A DNA stretch of 64,000 nt from Gemmatimonadota bacterium (GCA_028873825.1 JAPPNM010000177.1:4212-68211), one strand, 5' to 3'. Shown: positions 1-10,016, counted from the first letter of the stretch. Program-made: numbers and translations. Notes: generated from the sequence alone by a model not told the origin.

Positions 1-279
1 GAGCGCTGCCACCGTGTCGCGAAGCTGCCGGGCGTATTCGTACCACGCGTCGGCATTGCCCCAGGAGCCGGTTTCCGTGCCGAGCATCTCCCGGGTGATA
101 TGCAGGTCGACTCGGGCCGTGTCGAGCTGCGCCCGTGCCGTGTCGCGCTGGTACTGCTCGAAGCGCAGAAGAACCGCGCAGGCCAGCAGCAGAATGAAGA
201 CGACGATGCTGAACGTCTCCGCCAGGGTCAGACCCAGCGTGAGCCCCTTGCGGTAGTGCTTCTTCTCGGCGGGGAGCAT
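1..279 (-). CDS. MotB/TolR/ZorB-like membrane anchor protein, N-terminal part only (gene runs off the left edge)
   Basis: ATG at 279 on the minus strand. Translation is MLPAEKKHYRKGLTLGLTLAETFSIVVFILLLACAVLLRFEQYQRD... It has a basic N-terminus, then a single TM helix with an acidic residue at its mouth. Compare the TolR of this window, INVTSLVDIAFTLLVIFII. It lies 18 nt downstream of the MotA-like gene. It is absent from the ORF track because it is open at the window edge. Confidence 0.4.
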   Translation of the reverse strand, partial: MLPAEKKHYRKGLTLGLTLAETFSIVVFILLLACAVLLRFEQYQRDTARAQLDTARVDLHITREMLGTETGSWGNADAWYEYARQLRDTVAAL

Positions 280-297
280 CGCGATCCGGGGGTCGGA

Positions 298-1746
298 TCA
301 GGACTTGCGCCGGAACCGGGGAAGCCGCGTCAGCGCACGGGGCATGCGCCCCAGCGTCCTCCGGATCCCGCGAACCCGCGCCACCGCCGAGGCCACCGCC
401 CTCTTCACCCGCGAGACCTCCCGCAGGTGCGCGGACAACTCCCCGGCCTCACGCCTGGCCTCCTCGAGGGTGCTGGAGAGTTGGGCGGACCGCTCGCCGG
501 CCGCCGCCAGGTCGGCCTTCAGCTCCCGCGCCAGCCGGCGTACCGGCCCGACACGGTCGGCCAGCTCGGGTCCCATCTCGCGCAGTTGCTCATCGAGACT
601 GCCGGCCGTGCCGGGGATGGAGGCGAGCCCCTTCCGCGCGGCCCGCAGGGAGTCCCCCAGTCCTTCGAACCCCGCATTCATTTCCGCCGCGTGTCTGCCG
701 ATCCCGCGAATCCCCCGGGTTCCTTCGTGCAGTTGGTCCACGGCTTCCTTCCAGAGCGGCAGGACCTCATGCTCGTCCACGGCGTCGGCGATGCCGGTCA
801 GGGCCACCTTCGCCCGTTCCGCGCTTCCCCGCACGCCGGAAAGGGTGTCGCCGAGGGCGGACACGGCGGCGTCCATGCCGCCCACGCCCCGCAGGGTGGC
901 GGCGATCCGTTCCGCGGCGGGTCCCGCGACTTTGTTGATCCCGTCGAATGTGGCCTCGGCCCTGGCGAACCGGACCTGTACGTTGTCCAGACGCTCCCCG
1001 AGCTCCTCGGCCCGGCCCTGAAGGGTGCCGAGGGCTTGGCCGCCGGCGTCGCAAACCGCATTCAGCCGGTCCATCTCCCGGGCGAGCGACCGAGTTGCGG
1101 CGGTGATGTGGTCCGCGTATTCGTCCAAGGCCGCGTAGATCCCCGCCGTCCTCTTCGTGCCCTCCGCGATGGTCTCCGCCATCTCGCCCAGCCCCGCGGA
1201 CGAGTCCCGGAACTTGTGCGCCATGATGTCGAGGTCGTCGCGCGCCCGGTCGAGGCTCTCCTTCATCAGCGCCACGGTCTCCTCGAGCCGGGACCGGGTG
1301 GTGTCCACGATGTCGCCGGGCGACTCCTGCGACATCGTGAACCAGACCCGCCCGGCGAGCCCGACGATCGTCGTCAGCAGCGCGATCCCGAAGTTCCGGA
1401 TCGACCCGGTCGTCCCGCTCCCGTCACCGCCGGGCGCCCCCCAGTCGAAGGTGATCAACGCGGCGACCAGGGCGGCAAAGGTGAAGAGGAGACCCAGATA
1501 GTAGATGGATTCGCCCTTGGTGTCGCTCGGGACGTCGGCGTCGTCCACGGTCCGTGCGATGAAGAAGCCGTAGATGATCATCCATGCGGCAACGGTCGAA
1601 GCGAGCCACCACGGCCCGATCCCGATGAGATTCCCGAAGCCGATGGTCGTGCAGCCGATCAGCAGCGCGATCAGCCACGCGTCGCGGTATTCCCGTAGCG
1701 CTTCTTCGGATTGTGAGGCGGAGCGCTCTTCGTACGCGGGACTCAT
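298..1746 (-). CDS. MotA/ExbB/TolQ-family channel protein with about 330-aa C-terminal helical tail (ZorA-like architecture)
   Basis: ORF 298..1764. The ATG at 1746 forms an ATGA overlap with the upstream stop, so it is the preferred start. Four predicted TM helices. The last pair, YLGLLFTFAALVAAL...IRNFGIALLTTIVGLAGRVW, mirrors the TolQ signature in this window, LLGLMGTVIGIV...GVAEALITTVAGLAVAIP. The remainder is Ala/Arg/Glu/Leu-rich helical sequence. Confidence 0.6.
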   Translation of the reverse strand: MSPAYEERSASQSEEALREYRDAWLIALLIGCTTIGFGNLIGIGPWWLASTVAAWMIIYGFFIARTVDDADVPSDTKGESIYYLGLLFTFAALVAALITFDWGAPGGDGSGTTGSIRNFGIALLTTIVGLAGRVWFTMSQESPGDIVDTTRSRLEETVALMKESLDRARDDLDIMAHKFRDSSAGLGEMAETIAEGTKRTAGIYAALDEYADHITAATRSLAREMDRLNAVCDAGGQALGTLQGRAEELGERLDNVQVRFARAEATFDGINKVAGPAAERIAATLRGVGGMDAAVSALGDTLSGVRGSAERAKVALTGIADAVDEHEVLPLWKEAVDQLHEGTRGIRGIGRHAAEMNAGFEGLGDSLRAARKGLASIPGTAGSLDEQLREMGPELADRVGPVRRLARELKADLAAAGERSAQLSSTLEEARREAGELSAHLREVSRVKRAVASAVARVRGIRRTLGRMPRALTRLPRFRRKS

Positions 1747-2618
1747 CCCTCCACCATGATCCACCTGGGGCGGGCGAGCGGCGACGCTCCCTGGTCCAGG
1801 AAGTAGTCCTCCCAGAAGCCGCGCAGCGTCCCGCCCTGAATCCGGCCGGCCCCGCCGCGGCGGGCCAGCAGAAACACGGACACTTCGACGCCGGAGAGAT
1901 CCACCCTGAGCGTCCCGTAGTCCGGGTTGCGGGACAGGGGGCCGAAGTCCGCGGAATCACGGTAGAAGGAGAGGTGGCGGGAATTCTGGATCATGTCGGA
2001 TACGACCAGCAACCGGCGCGGGATGTCCGCGGCGCGCGGCTGGAACGCGTTCACCGCGGCACCCTGAATGGCTTCCATGATCGGCGAGATGGAGTCGCCT
2101 TGCACATCGAGCAGGGCCCCCAGCGTCTGCCGCAGCGGTGCCAGGAATTCCTCCCTGTAGCGCCGCTCCGCGAGCTGCGGATTGCCCGTGAGCGAGCCCA
2201 CGTCGTCCGGGTGGACGGGCTTGCAGACTCTGAACAACGCGCGCGTGCCGCCCCGGCCGGCCTGGCCGACGGTGTAGACCCGGATCTCGGCGGTGGCGGG
2301 CGCGCCGTTCTCGATGGCCTCCAGCACGCGGGGCGCGCCGGAACCCTCCTGTACGTCGGTCAGAGTGTCGGAGGGGTCAACCAGGATCGCGATCTGCGCG
2401 GCGTAGTCGCCGTCCTCGGGGCAGTTGGCGGCGTCGAAGGCGCGGCTGCCCCGTTGGCCGCGGACGAAGAGTGCGATCAGGATCGCCAGGGCCAGTACGC
2501 CGATCACACCCCCGATTGCATTTTTGCGCTTCGTCGTCTCGTTGCGTCTCGTCGCCCGCCCCCGGCCCGGTCCCCGCCTTCGCCTCGATCCGCGTGTGCG
2601 CCCGTGGTCCCGCCTCAC
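1743..2618 (-). CDS. membrane-anchored vWA-like domain protein
   Basis: In frame with ORF 1743..3173. The GTG at 2618 overlaps the upstream TGA (GTGA). The N-terminus is Arg-rich, followed by the TM helix AIGGVIGVLALAILIALFV. MIDAS-like elements are present: ILVDPSDTLT, SPIMEAIQ and RLLVVSDMIQN. Confidence 0.5.
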   Translation of the reverse strand: MRRDHGRTRGSRRRRGPGRGRATRRNETTKRKNAIGGVIGVLALAILIALFVRGQRGSRAFDAANCPEDGDYAAQIAILVDPSDTLTDVQEGSGAPRVLEAIENGAPATAEIRVYTVGQAGRGGTRALFRVCKPVHPDDVGSLTGNPQLAERRYREEFLAPLRQTLGALLDVQGDSISPIMEAIQGAAVNAFQPRAADIPRRLLVVSDMIQNSRHLSFYRDSADFGPLSRNPDYGTLRVDLSGVEVSVFLLARRGGAGRIQGGTLRGFWEDYFLDQGASPLARPRWIMVEG

Positions 2619-3772
2619 GCCGGTACGGCCTTGTCGTGGGGATCGAGCCTTGTGAATTCGTTCACAAGCTCGCAGCACTCGTCGTGAACGTCCCTCAGCC
2701 GCCGCTCGCGCTCTTCCAGCACCGCGCGCATCCGCCGGCTGCGTTCCTCCGCCTCCGCCTCGCTCGCCAGGCCCGAACTGTCGGGCGGCTCCGGCAGATC
2801 CCAGTCGGCAAGCCACGGCGTGCGCCAGACCTGCGGCTCCGGCGCGGAGCGCGCTTCCCGGTTGGCGTTCCGGTAGACGTCGAGCGCTCCGGCGCAGCTC
2901 TTCGCGAGGTCGCGCGCGAAGCCCAGGAAGTCGGTGTGCCTGGCATGAAGCTTGGCGTAGTCGCTCAGCGCGAGTTGGCGGGCCTGGACCGGGTCGCGGA
3001 AATCGTTGCGCAACCTGCGCCCCGCGTCGTCGTGGAGTTCGTTGAGGTCGCCCAGCAGCTCGCGGCGATCCTGCTCGAGCCTTTCCTCCGTCTTCCGCCG
3101 GTGCCGCTCCCGCTTCCCGTAGCCGGGGTACGGGTCGTCGGTCTTGAACCAGTCCATGGCGGCGGCGGCGCACATGGCAAGCCCGACCAGCAGCAGCATG
3201 TACGAGTAGAAGCCGCCCAGGCCGAACGGGCTGGCGCGGAAGAGGCAGAGCGCTTCCTGGTCGGCGTCGGCTTCGTCGGGGCCCCGCCAGCAGCTCTCGG
3301 GCAGGGAATTGGTCTGCGGGGTCTGCGCGGACGGGGATTGTGCGGCGGGAGACCGCCCGCCCGCGGCCAGCCCGCCCGGGGAGAACGCGGCGGGCGACGG
3401 GGCCGCCCCGGACCGGGTCGGCGGAGACTGCGCGGCCGCCGAATACGCAACCGGCGGGGCGTCGGGCGCCGGGGGATAGTCGTATGGCAGCGCCTCCCGG
3501 TAGTGGGCCACGAACAGATTCCAGAAGATCGCGATTGCGAGGACCGCGGCCAGTCCTGCCAACCCGCCGACCCGCCGTCGCGGATCACGGTGGTGGACCT
3601 GCCGCACCATCGCCGCGAGCAGCCAACCGAGCACCGCCACGTTGACGACGCTGATAAGCACTGCGTAACTCGTGCCGGCCAGCACTCCGCCCTCGACGTT
3701 GGCGCCGAAGAAGAGACCGTTGACGAGGCTCTCGAGGACCACCAGGGCAACCAGGATTCCCCAGTGCCACAT
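2615..3772 (-). CDS. multi-pass membrane protein with Pro/Ala-rich linker and C-terminal coiled coil
   Basis: ORF 2615..4006. The first 78 codons are Arg-rich junk, so the start is placed at the ATG at 3772 (MWHWGILVALVVLESLV...). There are three TM helices, a P/A/S-rich linker, a fourth TM helix (FYSYMLLLVGLAMCAAAAM), the motif DDPYPGYGKRERHRRK, and then a charged helical region. Confidence 0.45.
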   Translation of the reverse strand: MWHWGILVALVVLESLVNGLFFGANVEGGVLAGTSYAVLISVVNVAVLGWLLAAMVRQVHHRDPRRRVGGLAGLAAVLAIAIFWNLFVAHYREALPYDYPPAPDAPPVAYSAAAQSPPTRSGAAPSPAAFSPGGLAAGGRSPAAQSPSAQTPQTNSLPESCWRGPDEADADQEALCLFRASPFGLGGFYSYMLLLVGLAMCAAAAMDWFKTDDPYPGYGKRERHRRKTEERLEQDRRELLGDLNELHDDAGRRLRNDFRDPVQARQLALSDYAKLHARHTDFLGFARDLAKSCAGALDVYRNANREARSAPEPQVWRTPWLADWDLPEPPDSSGLASEAEAEERSRRMRAVLEERERRLRDVHDECCELVNEFTRLDPHDKAVPA

Positions 3773-5045
3773 GCGGCTCTCCGGGTAGTCGGCGTCGGCG
3801 TTGCGCCCCTGCTCGAGCCTGAAGCGATTGACCTCGCCGCGCTGCCCCGGCCCCTCCGCCTCGTCGCAACCGCAACACCTGCGGGTGCGGGCTCCCCGAC
3901 CGGTCCACCCAGGTTCCCAGAACCTCGTCCGTGCGGATCTGCCAGATCCTGAAGCCGGCCGGGACCTCGACGCCGCCCAGCCACGTCCCGGCGGAATCCA
4001 GCACAAGCCACTCGGCCGGCTCGTCGCGCTCGCCTGCCCCCACGTGGGGCCTGAGCCAGATCGCGCCGGCGGGGTCCACGAGGAGGTCCGAGAAGGCGGG
4101 GCGGGCGCCGGGGGCCGGCATGGTCTCGACGGCGTCGCGGATGAGCGGCGGCAGGCCCTCTCCCCTGGCCTCGCGCTCGGCCTCGATCTGCTTGTCCGTC
4201 AGGGCGAGCGGGTAGTCGGGAATCCTGAAAATGCGCAGCAGTTCCCCGCCGGGTCCCAGCTCCCGCACCTGCATGATGTCCGCGGCTCCGTAGTAGATCC
4301 TGCCGTCGTGCGTGGCGAAGTGGGAGCTCTTTGCGAAGAGCGGAGTTGCGCCCACGGCGGCGTTGTCGGCGTAGTGTTCCCTCCCGGCGGTTCGGCCGAT
4401 TGTGTCCAGCAGGGCGCCCGCCATGTCCAGGCGCACCAGGGCTCGCTCGTCGCGGAACAGCCCCGTGAGGGCGCGGTCGGGAGGGGGGATCGCCACTTCG
4501 CCTACCAGCGTTCCGTCGCCGAGGGACCGGAGGCTCTCGATCCGGTGGTCCGGCCGCATCGCGCGCACGAATTTCGGGCCGGGCGCGAAGACCGCGACGC
4601 GGCCGTCGGAGTCGCGCGCGAACAGGGAGTCTCCGACTAGCTCCAGCCGCCGCATGCCGGTGAACTGGCCCGGTCCTTCCCCCTCGCCGCCGGCCGATGC
4701 CACGAAGTAGCCTTCCGGCGTGAACTGCCGGATCTCGTTCGAGCCGGTGTTGCCGACCACGATGGACCCGTCCGACAGCCGTCCCATGCCGCGCACCAGG
4801 CTGAAGGAATAGACTTGGCCGAGTCCCCTCCGGGCCAGGTCCAGCACAGGCTCGGGGTCGATGCGCCACCGCGTGGTGTCGGTCCATACCGGCCAATGGG
4901 CTTCGACGATGGGGATGCCTGCGCTGTCCCGAACGGTGACGGACGGGCCCGAGCGAGGGTCGGAGCAGGCGTGGAGACAAAGGACGCATGCGGCGAAGGG
5001 AGCCGACGCTGGCACGCGCGCGAATCTCGGGAGCGAGCTGGTCAT
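3585..5045 (-). CDS. lipoprotein, probable beta-propeller (NHL/6-bladed-like); C-terminal about 95 aa look non-native
   Basis: ORF 3585..5045. Signal and lipobox: FAACVLCLHAC. Repetitive strand-rich body. After ...HPQVLRLRR the frame continues as Arg/Gly-rich sequence and overlaps the next gene. Confidence 0.5.
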   Translation of the reverse strand: MTSSLPRFARVPASAPFAACVLCLHACSDPRSGPSVTVRDSAGIPIVEAHWPVWTDTTRWRIDPEPVLDLARRGLGQVYSFSLVRGMGRLSDGSIVVGNTGSNEIRQFTPEGYFVASAGGEGEGPGQFTGMRRLELVGDSLFARDSDGRVAVFAPGPKFVRAMRPDHRIESLRSLGDGTLVGEVAIPPPDRALTGLFRDERALVRLDMAGALLDTIGRTAGREHYADNAAVGATPLFAKSSHFATHDGRIYYGAADIMQVRELGPGGELLRIFRIPDYPLALTDKQIEAEREARGEGLPPLIRDAVETMPAPGARPAFSDLLVDPAGAIWLRPHVGAGERDEPAEWLVLDSAGTWLGGVEVPAGFRIWQIRTDEVLGTWVDRSGSPHPQVLRLRRGGGAGAARRGQSLQARAGAQRRRRLPGEPHVALGNPGCPGGPREPRQRSLLRRQRRGRSAGRHELRSAYQRRQRGGARLAARGDGAAGPPP

Positions 5046-5165: not shown

Positions 5166-5951
5166 ATGTCCGACATCTTCAACAACCTGTCCCGCAACCC
5201 CGCCATGGAGCGAGCGGGCTTCCGCTTCGGCCCGCGCGGCACCCATGGGAGCCGCACCATCATGCTCCGCGAACTAACCGAGCTTCTCGCCGCGCTTCCC
5301 CCCGATGCGACCCGCGAAAATTACGCCACCGCCATCGTCGAGGAAAACGCCCTCGGGAAGCGGACCTACGCGACCCGCCTCAGCTCCCGCCAGCGCCTGA
5401 ACGAGATGTACGGTCTCGACCGGCGGCTGGCCCTCTTCCGAGTGCTCCGGCACCTCTGGAGAGTGGATCCCGACGGCCGCCCCATGCTTGCCATGCTCGC
5501 CGCCCTCGCTCGCGACCCGCTCCTCCGCGCGACCGCTTCCCCGGTCCTCGCGCTAGCCCCCGGCGAGGAGCTGGTTCGTTCCCGGTTCGCATCCGTCATC
5601 CGCGCCGCCGTCGGCTTGCGCCTGAACTCTGCCGTCCTCGACAAGGTGGCCCGCAACGCAGCGAGCTCGTGGGCGCAAGCGGGGCACCTGGAAGGCCGTG
5701 TCCGCAAGATCCGCCGCCGGATTGCCCCAACGCCCGCCGCCGCCGCCATGGCTCTGTGGCTGGGGCAGCTCGAAGGCCGTGCGGGTTTGTCTCTGCTCGA
5801 ATCCGCTTGGGCCACCGTGCTCGACGCTCCCGGCCGCGCCCTCCTTCCGGCCGCGCTCGATGCCAAGCGTCTCGGCTTGATTCATGCGCGGGTGGCGGGC
5901 AATGTGGTCGAGATCGATACCCGCATGCTTGACCCGGGGGTGAACTTGTGA
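5166..5951 (+). CDS. brxA: BREX protein BrxA (DUF1819-like)
   Basis: First gene of the canonical order brxA-brxB-brxC-pglX-pglZ-brxL. Its stop overlaps the brxB start (GTGA at 5948-5951). The assignment rests mostly on position and size. Confidence 0.6.
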   Translation: MSDIFNNLSRNPAMERAGFRFGPRGTHGSRTIMLRELTELLAALPPDATRENYATAIVEENALGKRTYATRLSSRQRLNEMYGLDRRLALFRVLRHLWRVDPDGRPMLAMLAALARDPLLRATASPVLALAPGEELVRSRFASVIRAAVGLRLNSAVLDKVARNAASSWAQAGHLEGRVRKIRRRIAPTPAAAAMALWLGQLEGRAGLSLLESAWATVLDAPGRALLPAALDAKRLGLIHARVAGNVVEIDTRMLDPGVNL

Positions 5952-6502
5952 ACCAGATCACGAAGCTGGCCGCAGTCTACCAGCGGCACGTCAGCGCGCC
6001 CTGGCAGCGCACCATGGCCGGAGCGCAACGAGTGATGATCATCGTGTACCCCAAGGAGCGGGAGCGGGCGCTGAGGGGCCGCATCGGCGAGTTCGAAGTG
6101 GCCACCCAAGAGGCCGGTCACCGCTGGGTTGATGTCGATACCACGCGCTGGTTCGCCGAATGGATGGCCGAGGATCCCTACCGCGATGCCTACTTCGAGG
6201 ACCCCGAACTGCTCGGCATGAAGCTGGAGGGCGAGTTCAAGACATTTGCCGCCGACCAGCTTACCGCGGCCCTGGAGGGCGCCGACAGGAACACCGTCGT
6301 CGCCCTCATCGGCAGCGCGTCGCTCTACGGATTCCTGCGCGTGTCCGAGCTGATCCAGTCGGTCGAACCCTTGATTCCGGGCCGTCTGGCCGTCTTCTTC
6401 CCCGGCACCAAGAACGACAACAACTACCGCCTGCTCGACGCCCGCGACGGATGGAGCTACCTGGCCCAGCCGATCACGCTGCACGACGCCTGGGTGCCGT
6501 AG
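5948..6502 (+). CDS. brxB: BREX protein BrxB (DUF1788-like)
   Basis: 184 aa, the position and size expected for BrxB. Translationally coupled to brxA. Confidence 0.65.
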   Translation: MNQITKLAAVYQRHVSAPWQRTMAGAQRVMIIVYPKERERALRGRIGEFEVATQEAGHRWVDVDTTRWFAEWMAEDPYRDAYFEDPELLGMKLEGEFKTFAADQLTAALEGADRNTVVALIGSASLYGFLRVSELIQSVEPLIPGRLAVFFPGTKNDNNYRLLDARDGWSYLAQPITLHDAWVP

Positions 6503-6539
6503 GAGCCCGCGAGATGCGGACACCTTCCGCCAAACCCGC

Positions 6540-9500
6540 ATGCCACGAATGAAGATCCACGAACTCCTCGACCGCGATCCGCTTCAAGTGAGACTGGCCA
6601 ACAACGGCCAGGCCCGAATCACCGGCGGGACCGACCCGAGGGTGATGCGCGAGCTGCGCGCCGAGCTCGAGACCTTCGTCTGCACCGGCCGTTTCGCCGA
6701 CGCCCTGCAACGCATCCTGGAGCGGTACCTGGCGCACCTTGACGCGCCCCGCCAGGATGCGGTCTGGGTGAGCGGTTTCTTCGGAAGCGGCAAGTCGCAT
6801 CTGCTCAAGATGCTGGCCCACCTCTGGGAGGATACGAAGTTCGACGACGGCGCCACGGCCCGCGGACTCGTCGCCGGCCGGCTGCCGTCGGAAGTCGGGG
6901 ACGCCCTGCGGGAGCTGGAGGTCCGTGCGCGCCGCATCGGCAGGCCGCCCGTGGCCGCCGCCGGGTCGCTGCTCGGAGGCACCATCGGCCATGTGCGGCT
7001 CTCCGTGCTGGCCGTCCTGTTGCGGGCGCGCGGGTTCCCCGAGCAGTACCCACAGGCCCGGTTCTGCTTCTGGTTGCGCCAAAACGGACTCCTGGACCGA
7101 GTCCGCGGCGCCGTCGACGCGGAAGGTCGGAGTTGGGAAGGCGAACTTCACAACCTCTACGTGAGCCCGGTCATCGCCAACGCGCTCATCGAAGCCGACC
7201 CGACGTTCGCCGCGGATGTCAAGGCGGCGCGGCAGCTCCTCTTCCAGCAATTCCCGCCGCCGAAAACGGACATCACGACCGACGAGTTCGTGACGGCAGC
7301 CAAGCAGGTGCTGGCCCCCGACGGCGAGATCCCGCCGACCGTTCTCGTGCTCGACGAAGTACAGCAGTACATCAACGAGGCCCAGGACCGTTCGGCCACC
7401 ATCACCGAGCTGGCGGAGGCGCTTCAGACGCGGTTCGACAGCCGCGTGCTCCTCGTCGCATCGGGCCAGTCCGCCCTCTCTGCAGGCACGACGGCCCTGC
7501 AGTGGCTCAGCGACCGGTTTCGCACGTCCGTGCAGCTCACCGACGCCGAGGTGGAGGCCGTCACGCGCGAGGTGCTGTTGCGGAAGCGCCCGACCGCGAC
7601 ACCGGCCGTCGAGCGGATGTTCGAAGACCACGCGGGCGAGGTGTCGCGGCACCTCGGCGGGACACGCCTGGCGGTGCGGCCGGAAGATACTGACAACAAC
7701 GTGGGCGACTACCCGCTTCTGCGGACCCGCAGGCGCTTCTGGGAGGAGTGTTTCCGGGCCGCCGACCCGTCGGGCACGCAGAGCCAGCTCCGTTCGCAGC
7801 TCAGGATCCTGTACGACTCGCTCCAGGAGGTTGCGGAGGAGCCGCTGGGTACCGTGATTCGCGCCAGCGACCTGTTTCGCGCGCTCGCGGCCGACCTGGT
7901 CGGCGCGGACGTGCTGCTGAACGAGATCAACACCCGCATCGCGAAGCTCGACGACGGAACGCCCGAGGGCACGCTCATGGCCGACCTGTGCGGGCTGGTG
8001 TTCCTCATCGGCAAGCTGCCCCGGCAGGATGCGGTGGATCTCGGGGTTCGGGCGAATGCCGGGACGCTCGCCGACTTGCTTGTGAAGGAAATCACAAGCG
8101 ACTCCGGGCCCTTCCGGCACACCGTGGCGGTCGAGTTGGAGAAGCTCGCCGACGAAGGCGTGTTGATGAAGGTGGCCGACGAGTACCGCATCCAGACCAC
8201 CGAGGGCGCCGACTGGGAGCGGGCCTTCCGGGAGGAGCGGACCGCGCTCGGCCGCAACGAGGTCGAGGTCGCGGCGCGCAGGGAGCAGCTTCTGCGCGGT
8301 GCGGTACAGGAGATCGTGGGGCAGGTTCGGCCCGTGCATGGGGAGGCGAAGATCCGGCGAAGGGTCGAGCTGCGGCTGCACGGCGACCCGGACCCGGCCG
8401 GGAGCAACGCCGTCGGTGTCCGGCTCGGCGACGAGTGGTCGGTGTCTTGGGCGCAGGTGCGCGACGAGGCGCTGAAGCGCGGCATGGAGGACCCCGTGCT
8501 TCACATGCACCTCCCGAAGCAGAGCGCCGAGGAGCTGCGAAGGCACATCGTGGCCGTGGAGGCGGCCCGCCGGGTCATGGACCACCGCGGCACGCCCGCG
8601 TCCAGAGAGGGTCAGGAGGCGCGCACGAGCATGAAGAGCAGGCTCGAGGGTTCCGAGGCCGCGCGCAACGAGATCGTGAGGACCATCGTGCGGTCGGCCA
8701 GGGTCCTGCAGAGCGGAGGCGCAGAGATCTACGGCGAGGACCTTGTGTCGAAGCTGCGGACGGGTGCCGACAAGTCGCTGTGCCGCCTGTTTCCGCACTT
8801 CACCGAGGGCGACCACCGGGCCTGGCAGCCGGCGCTCAAGCGGGCGCGGGAGGGGTCGGGGGAACCATTCAAGGCGGTGGGCTGGACGGGACCGGTGTCG
8901 GAGCACCCTGTCTCGAAGCGGGTCCTCGCCGTGGTGGGCGTCGCGGCCCAGGGATCGGCTGTCCGGCGAACCTTGGAATCCGCGCCGTACGGGTGGCCCC
9001 GGGACGCCATCGACGCGGCGCTGGTCGCCCTGCACCGGGACGGACACCTCAGGGCGGAGCGGAACGGCCGGCCGTTGGCCACGGCCCAGCTGGACCAGAC
9101 CGCCATCTCCAAGGCCCGGTTCCGTCCCGAGAAGGTGCGTCTGACGACCGGGCAGCGGGTTGAGCTGCGGGGGTTGTTCGGAAAGCTGGGGGTGCGGGCC
9201 AGGAGTGGTGAGGAGGAGGAGGGGGGGCGCAGGTTCTTGGTAGCCTTGGCGGAGCTTGCGGCGAGGGCGGGGGGCGAGCCGCCGCTGCCCGCGGTGCCGG
9301 GCACGGGCGTCGTGGACGGCATCTCCCAGCTCACGGGCAACGAACAGCTCGCGGCGATGCTGGAGCACCGGGAGGAGATCGAGGGTGCGATCGGGGAATG
9401 GGGTGGTTTGGCGGAGCGGGCCGAGGGGCGGTTGGGGCGTTGGAAGCTCGCGAAGGCTCTGCATCGTCATGCGCGGGGGGAGCTGGAGATAGCAGAGGTG

Positions 9501-10016
9501 GTTGGGGCGCAGTTGGCGGCCATCGAGGAGCAGCGCAGCCTGCTTGAGGCGACCGACCACGTTTCGCCGCGTCTGGCGAGGGTGGCCGGGGCGTTGAGGA
9601 CGGAGCTGGGGGCGCGGCACGGGGAGCTTGGTGAGGCGGTGGTGCGGGCCGTGGACGGGTTGGACTCCGATGCGACGTGGGCGAAGCTGGACGAGACGGT
9701 TCGGGCGGAGATTCTTGGTGTGGTGGGTTTGGTGATGCCGTCGCCGCTCGCGGTCGAAACGGACGAGGCGCTGAGGCGGGAGCTGGACCGGCGTGGGCTG
9801 GCGGCGTGGCGTTCGGAGATCGATGCGGTGCAGGTGCGGGCGGGGAGGGCGCTGGGGGAGGCGGCGGGGCGGTTGGGTGGGGAGGAGACGCCGGTGAACT
9901 ACGTGAACGTGCGCCTCGGCACGTTGAAGGACGAGGAAGCCGTTCAGCGGTGGGTTGCGGAGCATAGGGGCAAGCTTACTGAGGCGGTCCGCAAGGGGCC
10001 GGTGATAGTGCGGTGA
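6540..10016 (+). CDS. brxC: BREX ATPase BrxC/PglY (DUF499-type P-loop)
   Basis: 1158 aa. Walker A motif GFFGSGKSHLLK near residue 80, Walker B-like VLVLDEVQQY. Alternative ATG at 6549. Confidence 0.85.
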   Translation: MPRMKIHELLDRDPLQVRLANNGQARITGGTDPRVMRELRAELETFVCTGRFADALQRILERYLAHLDAPRQDAVWVSGFFGSGKSHLLKMLAHLWEDTKFDDGATARGLVAGRLPSEVGDALRELEVRARRIGRPPVAAAGSLLGGTIGHVRLSVLAVLLRARGFPEQYPQARFCFWLRQNGLLDRVRGAVDAEGRSWEGELHNLYVSPVIANALIEADPTFAADVKAARQLLFQQFPPPKTDITTDEFVTAAKQVLAPDGEIPPTVLVLDEVQQYINEAQDRSATITELAEALQTRFDSRVLLVASGQSALSAGTTALQWLSDRFRTSVQLTDAEVEAVTREVLLRKRPTATPAVERMFEDHAGEVSRHLGGTRLAVRPEDTDNNVGDYPLLRTRRRFWEECFRAADPSGTQSQLRSQLRILYDSLQEVAEEPLGTVIRASDLFRALAADLVGADVLLNEINTRIAKLDDGTPEGTLMADLCGLVFLIGKLPRQDAVDLGVRANAGTLADLLVKEITSDSGPFRHTVAVELEKLADEGVLMKVADEYRIQTTEGADWERAFREERTALGRNEVEVAARREQLLRGAVQEIVGQVRPVHGEAKIRRRVELRLHGDPDPAGSNAVGVRLGDEWSVSWAQVRDEALKRGMEDPVLHMHLPKQSAEELRRHIVAVEAARRVMDHRGTPASREGQEARTSMKSRLEGSEAARNEIVRTIVRSARVLQSGGAEIYGEDLVSKLRTGADKSLCRLFPHFTEGDHRAWQPALKRAREGSGEPFKAVGWTGPVSEHPVSKRVLAVVGVAAQGSAVRRTLESAPYGWPRDAIDAALVALHRDGHLRAERNGRPLATAQLDQTAISKARFRPEKVRLTTGQRVELRGLFGKLGVRARSGEEEEGGRRFLVALAELAARAGGEPPLPAVPGTGVVDGISQLTGNEQLAAMLEHREEIEGAIGEWGGLAERAEGRLGRWKLAKALHRHARGELEIAEVVGAQLAAIEEQRSLLEATDHVSPRLARVAGALRTELGARHGELGEAVVRAVDGLDSDATWAKLDETVRAEILGVVGLVMPSPLAVETDEALRRELDRRGLAAWRSEIDAVQVRAGRALGEAAGRLGGEETPVNYVNVRLGTLKDEEAVQRWVAEHRGKLTEAVRKGPVIVR

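Follow-up and report, generated by a model that had tools for sequence, protein, structure and literature searches.

Organization of the locus

We describe four chained open reading frames (ORFs), labeled G1, G2, G3, and G4, that lie on the minus strand at positions 1-3772 of a 64,000-nucleotide (nt) stretch of DNA from a Gemmatimonadota bacterium (GCA_028873825.1, JAPPNM010000177.1:4212-68211); "the window" denotes this whole stretch. Together they are one copy of a conserved four-gene inner-membrane cassette that is uncharacterized and probably horizontally spread. The stop codon of G1 overlaps the GTG start codon of G2 in the sequence GTGA (2618-2615, minus strand), the stop of G2 overlaps the start of G3 in ATGA (1746-1743, minus strand), and a short spacer separates G3 from G4. 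The chain of genes put forward in an earlier description of this DNA (the preliminary description) is therefore real, and all three of its junctions are exact. The features are listed below (aa, amino acids; TM, transmembrane).

1..279, minus strand: G4, the first 93 of 404 codons, partial at the window edge, with a MotB-like N-terminus; the remainder lies outside the window (L001:11468-12682)
280..297, minus strand: G3-G4 spacer of 18 nt, preceding the G4 ATG at 279
298..1746, minus strand: G3, 482 aa, with four TM helices and a variable helical tail (hairpin conservation and hhalign)
1743..2618, minus strand: G2, 291 aa, with one TM helix and a vWA fold (AlphaFold2 and Foldseek)
2615..3772, minus strand: G1 remnant, 385 aa from the first available ATG (alignment with relatives)
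3773..3842, minus strand: G1-homologous in-frame stretch (GEVNRFRLEQGRNADADYPESR) without a start codon (protein and DNA alignment)

An exact-protein look-up of G3 led to a 145-kb metagenome scaffold, which supplied the sequence past the window edge. On this extension G4 has a full length of 404 aa and is the final gene of the operon; beyond it lie a convergent dCache sensor gene and then an RND pump. The preliminary description held that the gene set following the MotB-like gene was cut off by the window edge, and proposed extending the contig leftward in search of ZorC/D/E-like effectors. The edge does cut G4, but no further operon genes follow; the extended operon stops at G4 with no such effector.

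Distribution and conservation of the cassette

Searches with G2, G3, and G4 each returned between 85 and 148 homologs, all unnamed or "hypothetical" and mostly from Gemmatimonadota, and the G1-G2-G3-G4 order and 4-nt overlaps are kept in six contigs with called genes. These homologs and the recurrent order and overlaps support that the genes are real. A scan of one genome per species gave 46 loci with identical gene order in all, mostly in Longimicrobiales and also in Rhodothermales, Desulfobacterota, and Alpha-, Beta-, and Gammaproteobacteria. The order G1-G2-G3-G4 holds in every complete locus among 60 examined. Chromosomes as well as 24 plasmids carry the cassette, and order and 4-nt overlaps are kept across all of these lineages and on the plasmids. 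The plasmids come from cultured Rhizobium, Sinorhizobium, Microvirga, Paracoccus, and Tistrella, and they include pRL11 of Rhizobium johnstonii 3841 (285,192-290,347; RL_RS31080-31100). One Longimicrobiales genome encodes two diverged copies of the cassette (L010 and L038, both in OY762557.1), whose G3 N-termini are 84% and 55% identical to that of the window.

The family is considerably broader than these loci. A profile built from the first 165 residues of G3 matched 2,384 clusters at 50% identity (E<1e-3) among 1.84 billion representatives, and two randomly taken distant members both proved to lie in the four-gene cassette, behind which comes a small gene encoding about 70 aa. Such a fifth gene, encoding 68-83 aa, stands directly after G4 in distant cassettes (L053:5965-6177, L054:10295-10501, L055:4953-5159, and L047:10201-10452) and is not present in the window lineage. 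No relative of the cassette was found in 50,697 phage genomes (INPHARED) or in IMG/VR.

Since Pfam, NCBIfam, and PADLOC hold no model for any of the four proteins, these are unannotated or misannotated in genomes and in defense censuses. The labels of the Prokaryotic Genome Annotation Pipeline (PGAP) are misleading on plasmid copies (L056, H4), where G3 bears the name "methyl-accepting chemotaxis protein" and G1 the name "DMT family transporter"; Pfam finds no DMT-type transporter domain in G1. A literature search found no description of the cassette or of the Rhizobium locus tags, an absence that is not proof.

G3 has a hairpin resembling that of MotA/ExbB/TolQ and a helical tail

The conserved heart of G3 is the hairpin formed by TM3 and TM4, YYLGLLFTF...FGIALLTTIVGLAGR (also YYLGLLFTF...NFGIALLTTIVGLAGR), and the motifs GLLFTFAAL and FGIALLTTIVGLAG are the best-conserved portion of the family. 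Ten residues are invariant across the wide G3 family, namely Y82, Y83, G85, T89, F119, G120, A122, T126, G129, and R133. When a 157-sequence alignment of G3 N-termini was compared by hhalign with an alignment of TolQ/ExbB hairpins, the score was 25.5 (P 7.7e-4), with T89 placed on the threonine of the TolQ "GT" motif and T126 on that of "IATA". The full-length G3 alignment scored 28.4, and P over both runs was 0.8-1.4e-3, which is a modest statistic. One hundred column shuffles scored 11.9 +/- 2.4 with a maximum of 19.8, a reversed template gave a P of 0.22, and the G1, G2, and G4 alignments scored 9.7-13.8 against TolQ/ExbB. Two independent G3 profiles searched against 177,635 Protein Data Bank (PDB) sequences both had as their top match, in the register of the hairpin, 8VVN_C (E 0.12 and 0.34), which is the type I ZorA of Shewanella ANA-3 (PMC11890865). 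PF01618 is weakly matched by 7 of 79 distant G3 relatives (best 8e-4). As a calibration, the bona fide TolQ of the window matches solved MotA with an E-value of only 3e-4 to 0.36. It is likely, but not proven, that the G3 hairpin is remotely homologous to the pore hairpin of MotA/ExbB/TolQ or closely mimics it.

The tail that follows TM4 is about 345 aa long, variable, and helical, and it matches only helical and coiled-coil families; it is probably cytoplasmic. The PADLOC ZorA1 model matches G3 with an E-value of 8e-7 in this tail only (protein positions 311-453 against profile positions 452-596 of 663), and NCBIfam antiphage_ZorA_1, also confined to the tail, reaches 13.2 bits against a cutoff of 190. 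As judged from the sequences, these matches are coiled-coil similarity of the tail. The preliminary description had read G3 as MotA/ExbB/TolQ signature helices joined to a ZorA-type tail. The hairpin as seen by hhalign, the long tail, and ZorA as the top PDB match agree with it, but no curated model falls on the core.

G4 is a MotB-like partner with an invariant glutamate

The N-terminus of G4 (MLPAEKKHYRKGLTLGLTLAETFSIVVFILLL) is laid out as in MotB and TolR: a basic stretch leads into one TM helix, whose acidic residue lies close to the cytoplasmic end. The acidic residue is an invariant glutamate, Glu21 (GLTLAETFS), and with the basic N-terminus and the TM helix it bears out the earlier claim that the fourth gene starts like MotB/TolR/ZorB. 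We searched the loci with a regular expression that permits either Asp or Glu, [YHF][RKN][RKQ]Gx3Gx[TS]x[AS]E in its observed form, which can be summarized as YR[KR]GxxLGLTxAE. The motif occurs exactly once per locus in 58 of 60 loci, the two without a match being truncated contigs, and the residue is Glu in all 58 and never Asp.

The AlphaFold model of G4 has a periplasmic region of about 250 aa with five long helices, followed by an alpha/beta domain at residues 290-404 (predicted local distance difference test (pLDDT) score about 90) that contains two invariant cysteines and is also present in distant loci. A Foldseek search with the full-length model against PDB and BFVD, which was swamped by the long helices, found no relative of this end domain. 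The alphaproteobacterial orthologs of G4 end in an OmpA-like domain instead. PGAP names them "OmpA family protein", Pfam OmpA gives 5e-5 and 5e-3, and they carry an FxxGSAxL...GHTD motif and have TssL as their best PDB match. These orthologs, together with the features of G3 and G4 above, support that at the family level the pair has the architecture of MotA/MotB or ZorA/ZorB, and that the window lineage has swapped the wall-binding module of G4. We consider it likely that G3 and G4 form a divergent MotAB/ZorAB-like module.

G2 is a membrane-anchored vWA protein

G2 begins with an Arg-rich N-terminus and one TM helix (AIGGVIGVLALAILIALFV), which contains neither histidine nor an acidic residue, and continues into a domain of the vWA fold. 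Protein-level conservation of the long N-terminal extension supports GTG 2618 as the start codon. In the AlphaFold2 model (pLDDT 84, predicted TM-score 0.77) the fold is clear: among the top 50 PDB matches in Foldseek almost all are vWA or integrin I domains (E 2.7e-5 to 4e-3, probability about 1.0), with TM-scores of 0.45-0.56 when normalized by target length for isolated-domain targets. The structural neighbors comprise integrin I domains, Cachd1, BatB/aerotolerance proteins, Rpn10, and the anthrax-toxin receptor. No match to G2 was found at the sequence level in Pfam or PDB. The loops equivalent to the metal ion-dependent adhesion site (MIDAS) hold conserved D81, S/T83, S178, and D208, and D84 is invariant, whereas the canonical fifth MIDAS serine (DxSxS) is variable in the family. 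The Arg-rich N-terminus, the single TM helix, and the invariant Cys66 and Cys132 argue for a vWA domain that faces the periplasm. Model and structural search thus agree with the earlier identification of the product as a TM-anchored vWA protein.

G1 of the window has lost its 5' end

The G1 remnant has four TM helices, a periplasmic acidic loop bracketed by cysteines (CWRGPDEADADQEALC), and a C-terminal coiled coil of about 170 aa. Intact relatives are about 480-520 aa long. They begin with a conserved domain of about 115-130 aa in the cytoplasm, which four TM helices and a C-terminal coiled coil follow; their periplasmic loop reads CWRGPDEADADxEALC. Approximately 115 N-terminal codons that are present in all relatives are missing from the window. 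In protein alignments the homology starts abruptly at about 3838-3842. The DNA downstream of this breakpoint is 100% identical to that of the closest relative (L019), while the upstream DNA is unrelated. No in-frame start exists between TTG 4006 and ATG 3772. Based on these observations we conclude that the N-terminal domain and the gene's own promoter region were lost. So sharp an end of homology, at about 3840, points either to the fusion of two loci by a deletion or to a chimera of the metagenome assembly. The preliminary description was correct about the four TM helices and coiled coil of the first gene, but its start at 3772 is that of a remnant, the full gene encoding about 490 aa.

The DNA upstream of the breakpoint belongs to the 3' end of a lipoprotein-like ORF of 486 aa (3585-5045, minus strand). 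This ORF overlaps G1 in another frame, its final 85 or so codons covering the 5' part of the truncated gene, and it has no Pfam match and only a weak NHL/ScyF-like one. We also considered whether the in-frame "VNRFRLEQGR" upstream of ATG 3772 is a remnant of the N-terminal motif LVERFxL with an internal deletion, and rejected this; aligned with close relatives, it proves to be the normal segment preceding TM1, and everything upstream of it is gone. Truncated in G1 and without an attached nuclease, the window copy of the cassette may be impaired.

Secreted nucleases and genomic context

In other lineages the cassette is accompanied by secreted nucleases. In an alphaproteobacterial metagenome-assembled genome (MAG; L050), G4 itself ends in a fused staphylococcal nuclease (SNase)/thermonuclease domain (4e-11), and a gene for such an enzyme is adjacent in a betaproteobacterial MAG and on plasmids of Sinorhizobium, Microvirga, and R. 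johnstonii 3841 (L052, L056, L057, L058); in L056 an Excalibur Ca-binding gene precedes the thermonuclease. Endonuclease I is adjacent in Desulfogranum marinum (L047, 8e-33), and an S1/P1 nuclease (L053, 2e-70) and a DNase II (L054/55) are adjacent in two metagenomic loci. That four unrelated nuclease families occur in the same position suggests a functional link to extracytoplasmic DNA cleavage, though not a universal one. These nucleases are the best clue to function, and the preliminary description did not anticipate them.

The wider surroundings are diverse, with at least 20 distinct neighborhoods among 48 loci. Flank statistics, here and below, are approximate, since our home-made gene caller is imperfect on high-GC flanks. 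Toxin-antitoxin modules, transposases, and Mrr-helicase and SMEK/Mrr genes lie beside the cassette in some loci. Genes for HEC-01-type AAA_15/AAA_21 ATPases lie directly upstream of it in two syntenic genomes (L006:5647-7421 and L045:5441-6805), accompanied in L006 by a DUF4276 gene; these insertions occur in a lineage in which the cassette is placed between MlrC-like and fatty-acid-desaturase genes, and they resemble a hotspot. The link of the cassette to defense islands is modest.

Other genes recur near the cassette. A single or tandem gene of about 560 aa precedes it closely on the same strand in five loci (L007:3889-7253, L008, L010, L013, and L025); the conserved pair was considered as Gabija, and this was rejected as PADLOC found nothing. 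Related giant proteins of 911-1,734 aa are encoded downstream in five loci (L034:13190-18394, L010:14243-19222, L007, L008, and L048), directly after G4 and on the same strand in L034.

Within the window, a BREX-like operon (brxA/B/C-like; 5166-10016 and beyond, plus strand) diverges from the cassette. It encodes proteins of 261 aa and 184 aa, neither of which has a Pfam match on record, and then BrxC (1,158 aa), followed by ORFs of 1,219, 1,275, 824, and 687 aa that likely include PglX, PglZ, and BrxL. The BrxC is 35-39% identical over its full length to annotated BrxC, in agreement with the BREX neighbor named in the preliminary description. Its view of the cassette as accessory likewise stands, as a canonical TolQ/TolR pair is present at about 49.8-51.0 kb of the window.

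Comparison with known systems

Several well-described machines share parts of this architecture. With MotAB/PomAB, ExbBD, and TolQR the cassette shares a hairpin motif (xLGLxGT...ALxTTxxGL) with two pore threonines, and an adjacent gene pair in which the TM helix of the partner has an essential acidic residue near its cytoplasmic end. It differs in that the G3 family falls under all curated thresholds, TM2 and TM3 are joined by a cytoplasmic loop of only about 18 aa, the tail measures about 345 aa, the partner residue is Glu, and no TonB/TolA-type or flagellar partners are encoded.

GldLM is a divergent 5:2 motor that is missed by MotA/MotB models and has a glutamate in its ion path, on the A-type subunit GldL; its B-type subunit is a long dimer that spans the periplasm. 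The cassette would likewise be a motor too divergent for MotA/MotB models, with an ion-path Glu and a periplasm-spanning B subunit. In the cassette, however, the Glu lies on the B-type G4, the partner genes differ, and we found no sequence or fold match. GldLM/PorLM is reportedly the motor of gliding and type IX secretion, as treated by Hennell James et al. in 2021.

For G2 there are two points of reference. BatA/BatB (PDB 3IBS and 4JDU) are membrane-anchored bacterial vWA domains and among its best structural neighbors, but there is no sequence similarity, their operon contains MoxR and TPR genes, and G2 has D-x-[ST]-D where the canonical motif is DxSxS. Furthermore, inner-membrane-tethered vWA proteins encoded beside TolQ-like motors have been proposed to be force transducers (PMC12204202, Mol Biol Evol 2025). 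These families and the cassette have in common a vWA protein, periplasmic and TM-anchored, that is encoded with a MotA/TolQ-like gene. In contrast to them, the cassette has a separate MotB-like gene (G4) and a motor subunit that is far more divergent and tailed. The TM helix of G2 also lacks both the SHLS/His motif that marks family 1 and the trans-pore helix with Asp that, in the absence of a tolR-like gene, marks family 2.

The closest parallel is to Zorya, for which the type I ZorA/ZorB of Shewanella ANA-3 has been solved (PDB 8VVN; PMC11890865, PMC11946911). As in ZorA, a MotA-like membrane subunit has a long C-terminal tail, probably helical, and ZorA is the best solved-structure match of G3. 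As for ZorB, the gene that follows specifies a partner that crosses the membrane once and has an acidic residue; its periplasmic domain is OmpA-like in the alphaproteobacterial orthologs. The genomic placement is accessory and patchy, here beside BREX. On the other hand, ZorA and ZorB models miss the cores of the cassette proteins, and the carrier is Glu and not Asp. G1 and the vWA-encoding G2 are two extra obligatory membrane genes that precede the pair. In Gemmatimonadota, a long coiled coil and a Cys-containing end domain take the place of OmpA in G4. There are also no cytoplasmic ZorC/D/E/F/G effectors, the associated nucleases being of secreted types; ZorC/D/E-type effectors follow G4 neither here nor in the other loci examined.

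A proposed working of the cassette and its alternatives

We favor, at slightly short of an even chance, the hypothesis that the cassette is a divergent MotAB/ZorAB-like ion-driven unit joined to a vWA protein and acting as an envelope sensor or transducer against incoming DNA. The secreted DNases of four unrelated families that are attached in other lineages make this its likeliest job. G3 would form an outer ring in which the invariant Thr89 and Thr126 line the ion path, and the single TM helix of G4 would sit inside this ring and carry the ion on Glu21. Ion flow would turn or strain the unit, which the long coiled coil of G4 would anchor to the wall or outer layers by crossing the periplasm, ending in the Cys-containing domain here and in a putative OmpA-like wall-binding domain in the alphaproteobacterial orthologs. 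G2 may offer a MIDAS-type vWA site in the periplasm, for which the disulfide-bracketed acidic loop of G1 is a candidate ligand, and the G3 tail and the G1 coiled coil might pass the state of the envelope to the cytoplasm. The cassette would thus be an envelope sentinel against phage or foreign DNA, operating through a periplasmic DNase where one is attached, and Zorya-like without being Zorya. A role in defense as such is a plausible but tentative proposal that we place somewhat below an even chance. That the cassette represents an unrecognized class of ion-driven 5:2 motor, with an axle Glu and a vWA partner, which drives or gates a periplasmic DNase defense, seems to us unlikely.

A number of observations weigh against the favored hypothesis. 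The preliminary description held that the lack of a MotA_ExbB match for the 298-1746 product would refute its own reading, and the Pfam scan of G3 indeed returned none at E<=1, only sub-threshold coiled-coil families. More generally, no model in Pfam, NCBIfam, or PADLOC recognizes the G3 core, G1, G2, or G4, the matches being coiled-coil noise, and the PDB E-values for G3 are not significant alone. Of 79 distant G3 relatives, 8 match PF23778, a putative phage holin family 2, the best at 1.8e-6. In G4, the carrier residue is Glu where every known B subunit has Asp, the window lineage shows no OmpA or ZorB match, and the end domain at 290-404 has no relative in Pfam or among PDB sequences. A 5:2 assembly of G3 and G4 is purely conjectural, and G1 of the window is truncated at its 5' end. 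Regarding a role against incoming DNA, no nuclease lies near any Gemmatimonadota, Rhodothermales, or Paracoccus copy, strong PADLOC matches number only about 4 among 264 flank proteins (a raw count), and several loci have plainly housekeeping surroundings.

The alternatives differ in how much of the favored hypothesis they retain. The same ion-driven machine could serve a housekeeping or ecological role, such as powering the use of extracellular DNA as a nutrient (its capture, degradation, or uptake), the placement or release of nucleases, or vWA-mediated force transduction to the outer membrane or in adhesion. SNase, Endonuclease I, S1/P1, and DNase II have signal peptides and count among the classic non-specific enzymes that are secreted. 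Two plasmids have an Excalibur Ca-binding gene and ComEC near the cassette, several lineages hold it in stable synteny among metabolic genes, and it is carried on large rhizobial and Paracoccus replicons. The force-transducer proposal for vWA proteins beside TolQ-like motors (PMC12204202) points the same way, but G2 lacks the TM motifs of both published families. The patchy distribution over many phyla, the variable tail, the duplicates, and the defense and toxin-antitoxin neighbors better fit a conflict system. We regard a non-immune role as a serious contender that is nonetheless on the unlikely side.

It is improbable, in our judgment, that G3 and G4 are not a motor at all, with G3 a holin-like, pore-forming, or scaffold protein of convergent MotA likeness in a membrane-stress, lysis, or structural module. 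Such a protein would be in keeping with PF23778 matches stronger than those to MotA_ExbB, with the lack of a curated MotA_ExbB or ZorA match on the core, with the weak PDB E-values, and with the PGAP name "methyl-accepting chemotaxis protein" given to some orthologs. Against it stand a hairpin match in exact register with both pore threonines invariant, found for G3 alone among the membrane proteins of the cassette, and an obligatory downstream G4 with a MotB-like TM helix, an invariant acidic residue, and in Alphaproteobacteria an OmpA-like domain. The absence of relatives from the phage genomes and IMG/VR also argues against a holin-like origin. Membership in Zorya itself, whether as type I-III or directly as a new subtype with effectors beyond the window edge, is refuted, and we give it hardly any weight. 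The PADLOC ZorA1 match, ZorA at the top of the PDB search, the long tail, and the BREX neighbor fit Zorya, but the model matches cover the tail only and the NCBIfam score is far under its cutoff, G4 matches neither ZorB nor OmpA and has Glu for Asp, no same-strand gene follows G4 on the extended contig, and the four genes recur in 58 loci with nothing Zor-like. The architecture of G3, which the preliminary description considered to define ZorA, does not make this a Zorya system.

Implications

If the hypothesis of motor-driven periplasmic DNase defense is correct, the cassette would be the first immune system to destroy invading DNA in the periplasm under the control of the proton-motive force. 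If the favored reading holds, the 5:2 machines (Mot, Ton, Tol, Gld, and Zor) would gain an unnamed branch of about 2,400 clusters, present in at least six bacterial lineages and on many plasmids. This branch would have an unusual chemistry, with an axle Glu in place of Asp, and new partners, namely a vWA protein, a 4-TM coiled-coil protein, and secreted nucleases. Furthermore, the principle of Zorya, a wall-anchored motor acting as an envelope sentinel, would have been built more than once with differing outputs. R. johnstonii 3841 offers a tractable genetic model for this family.

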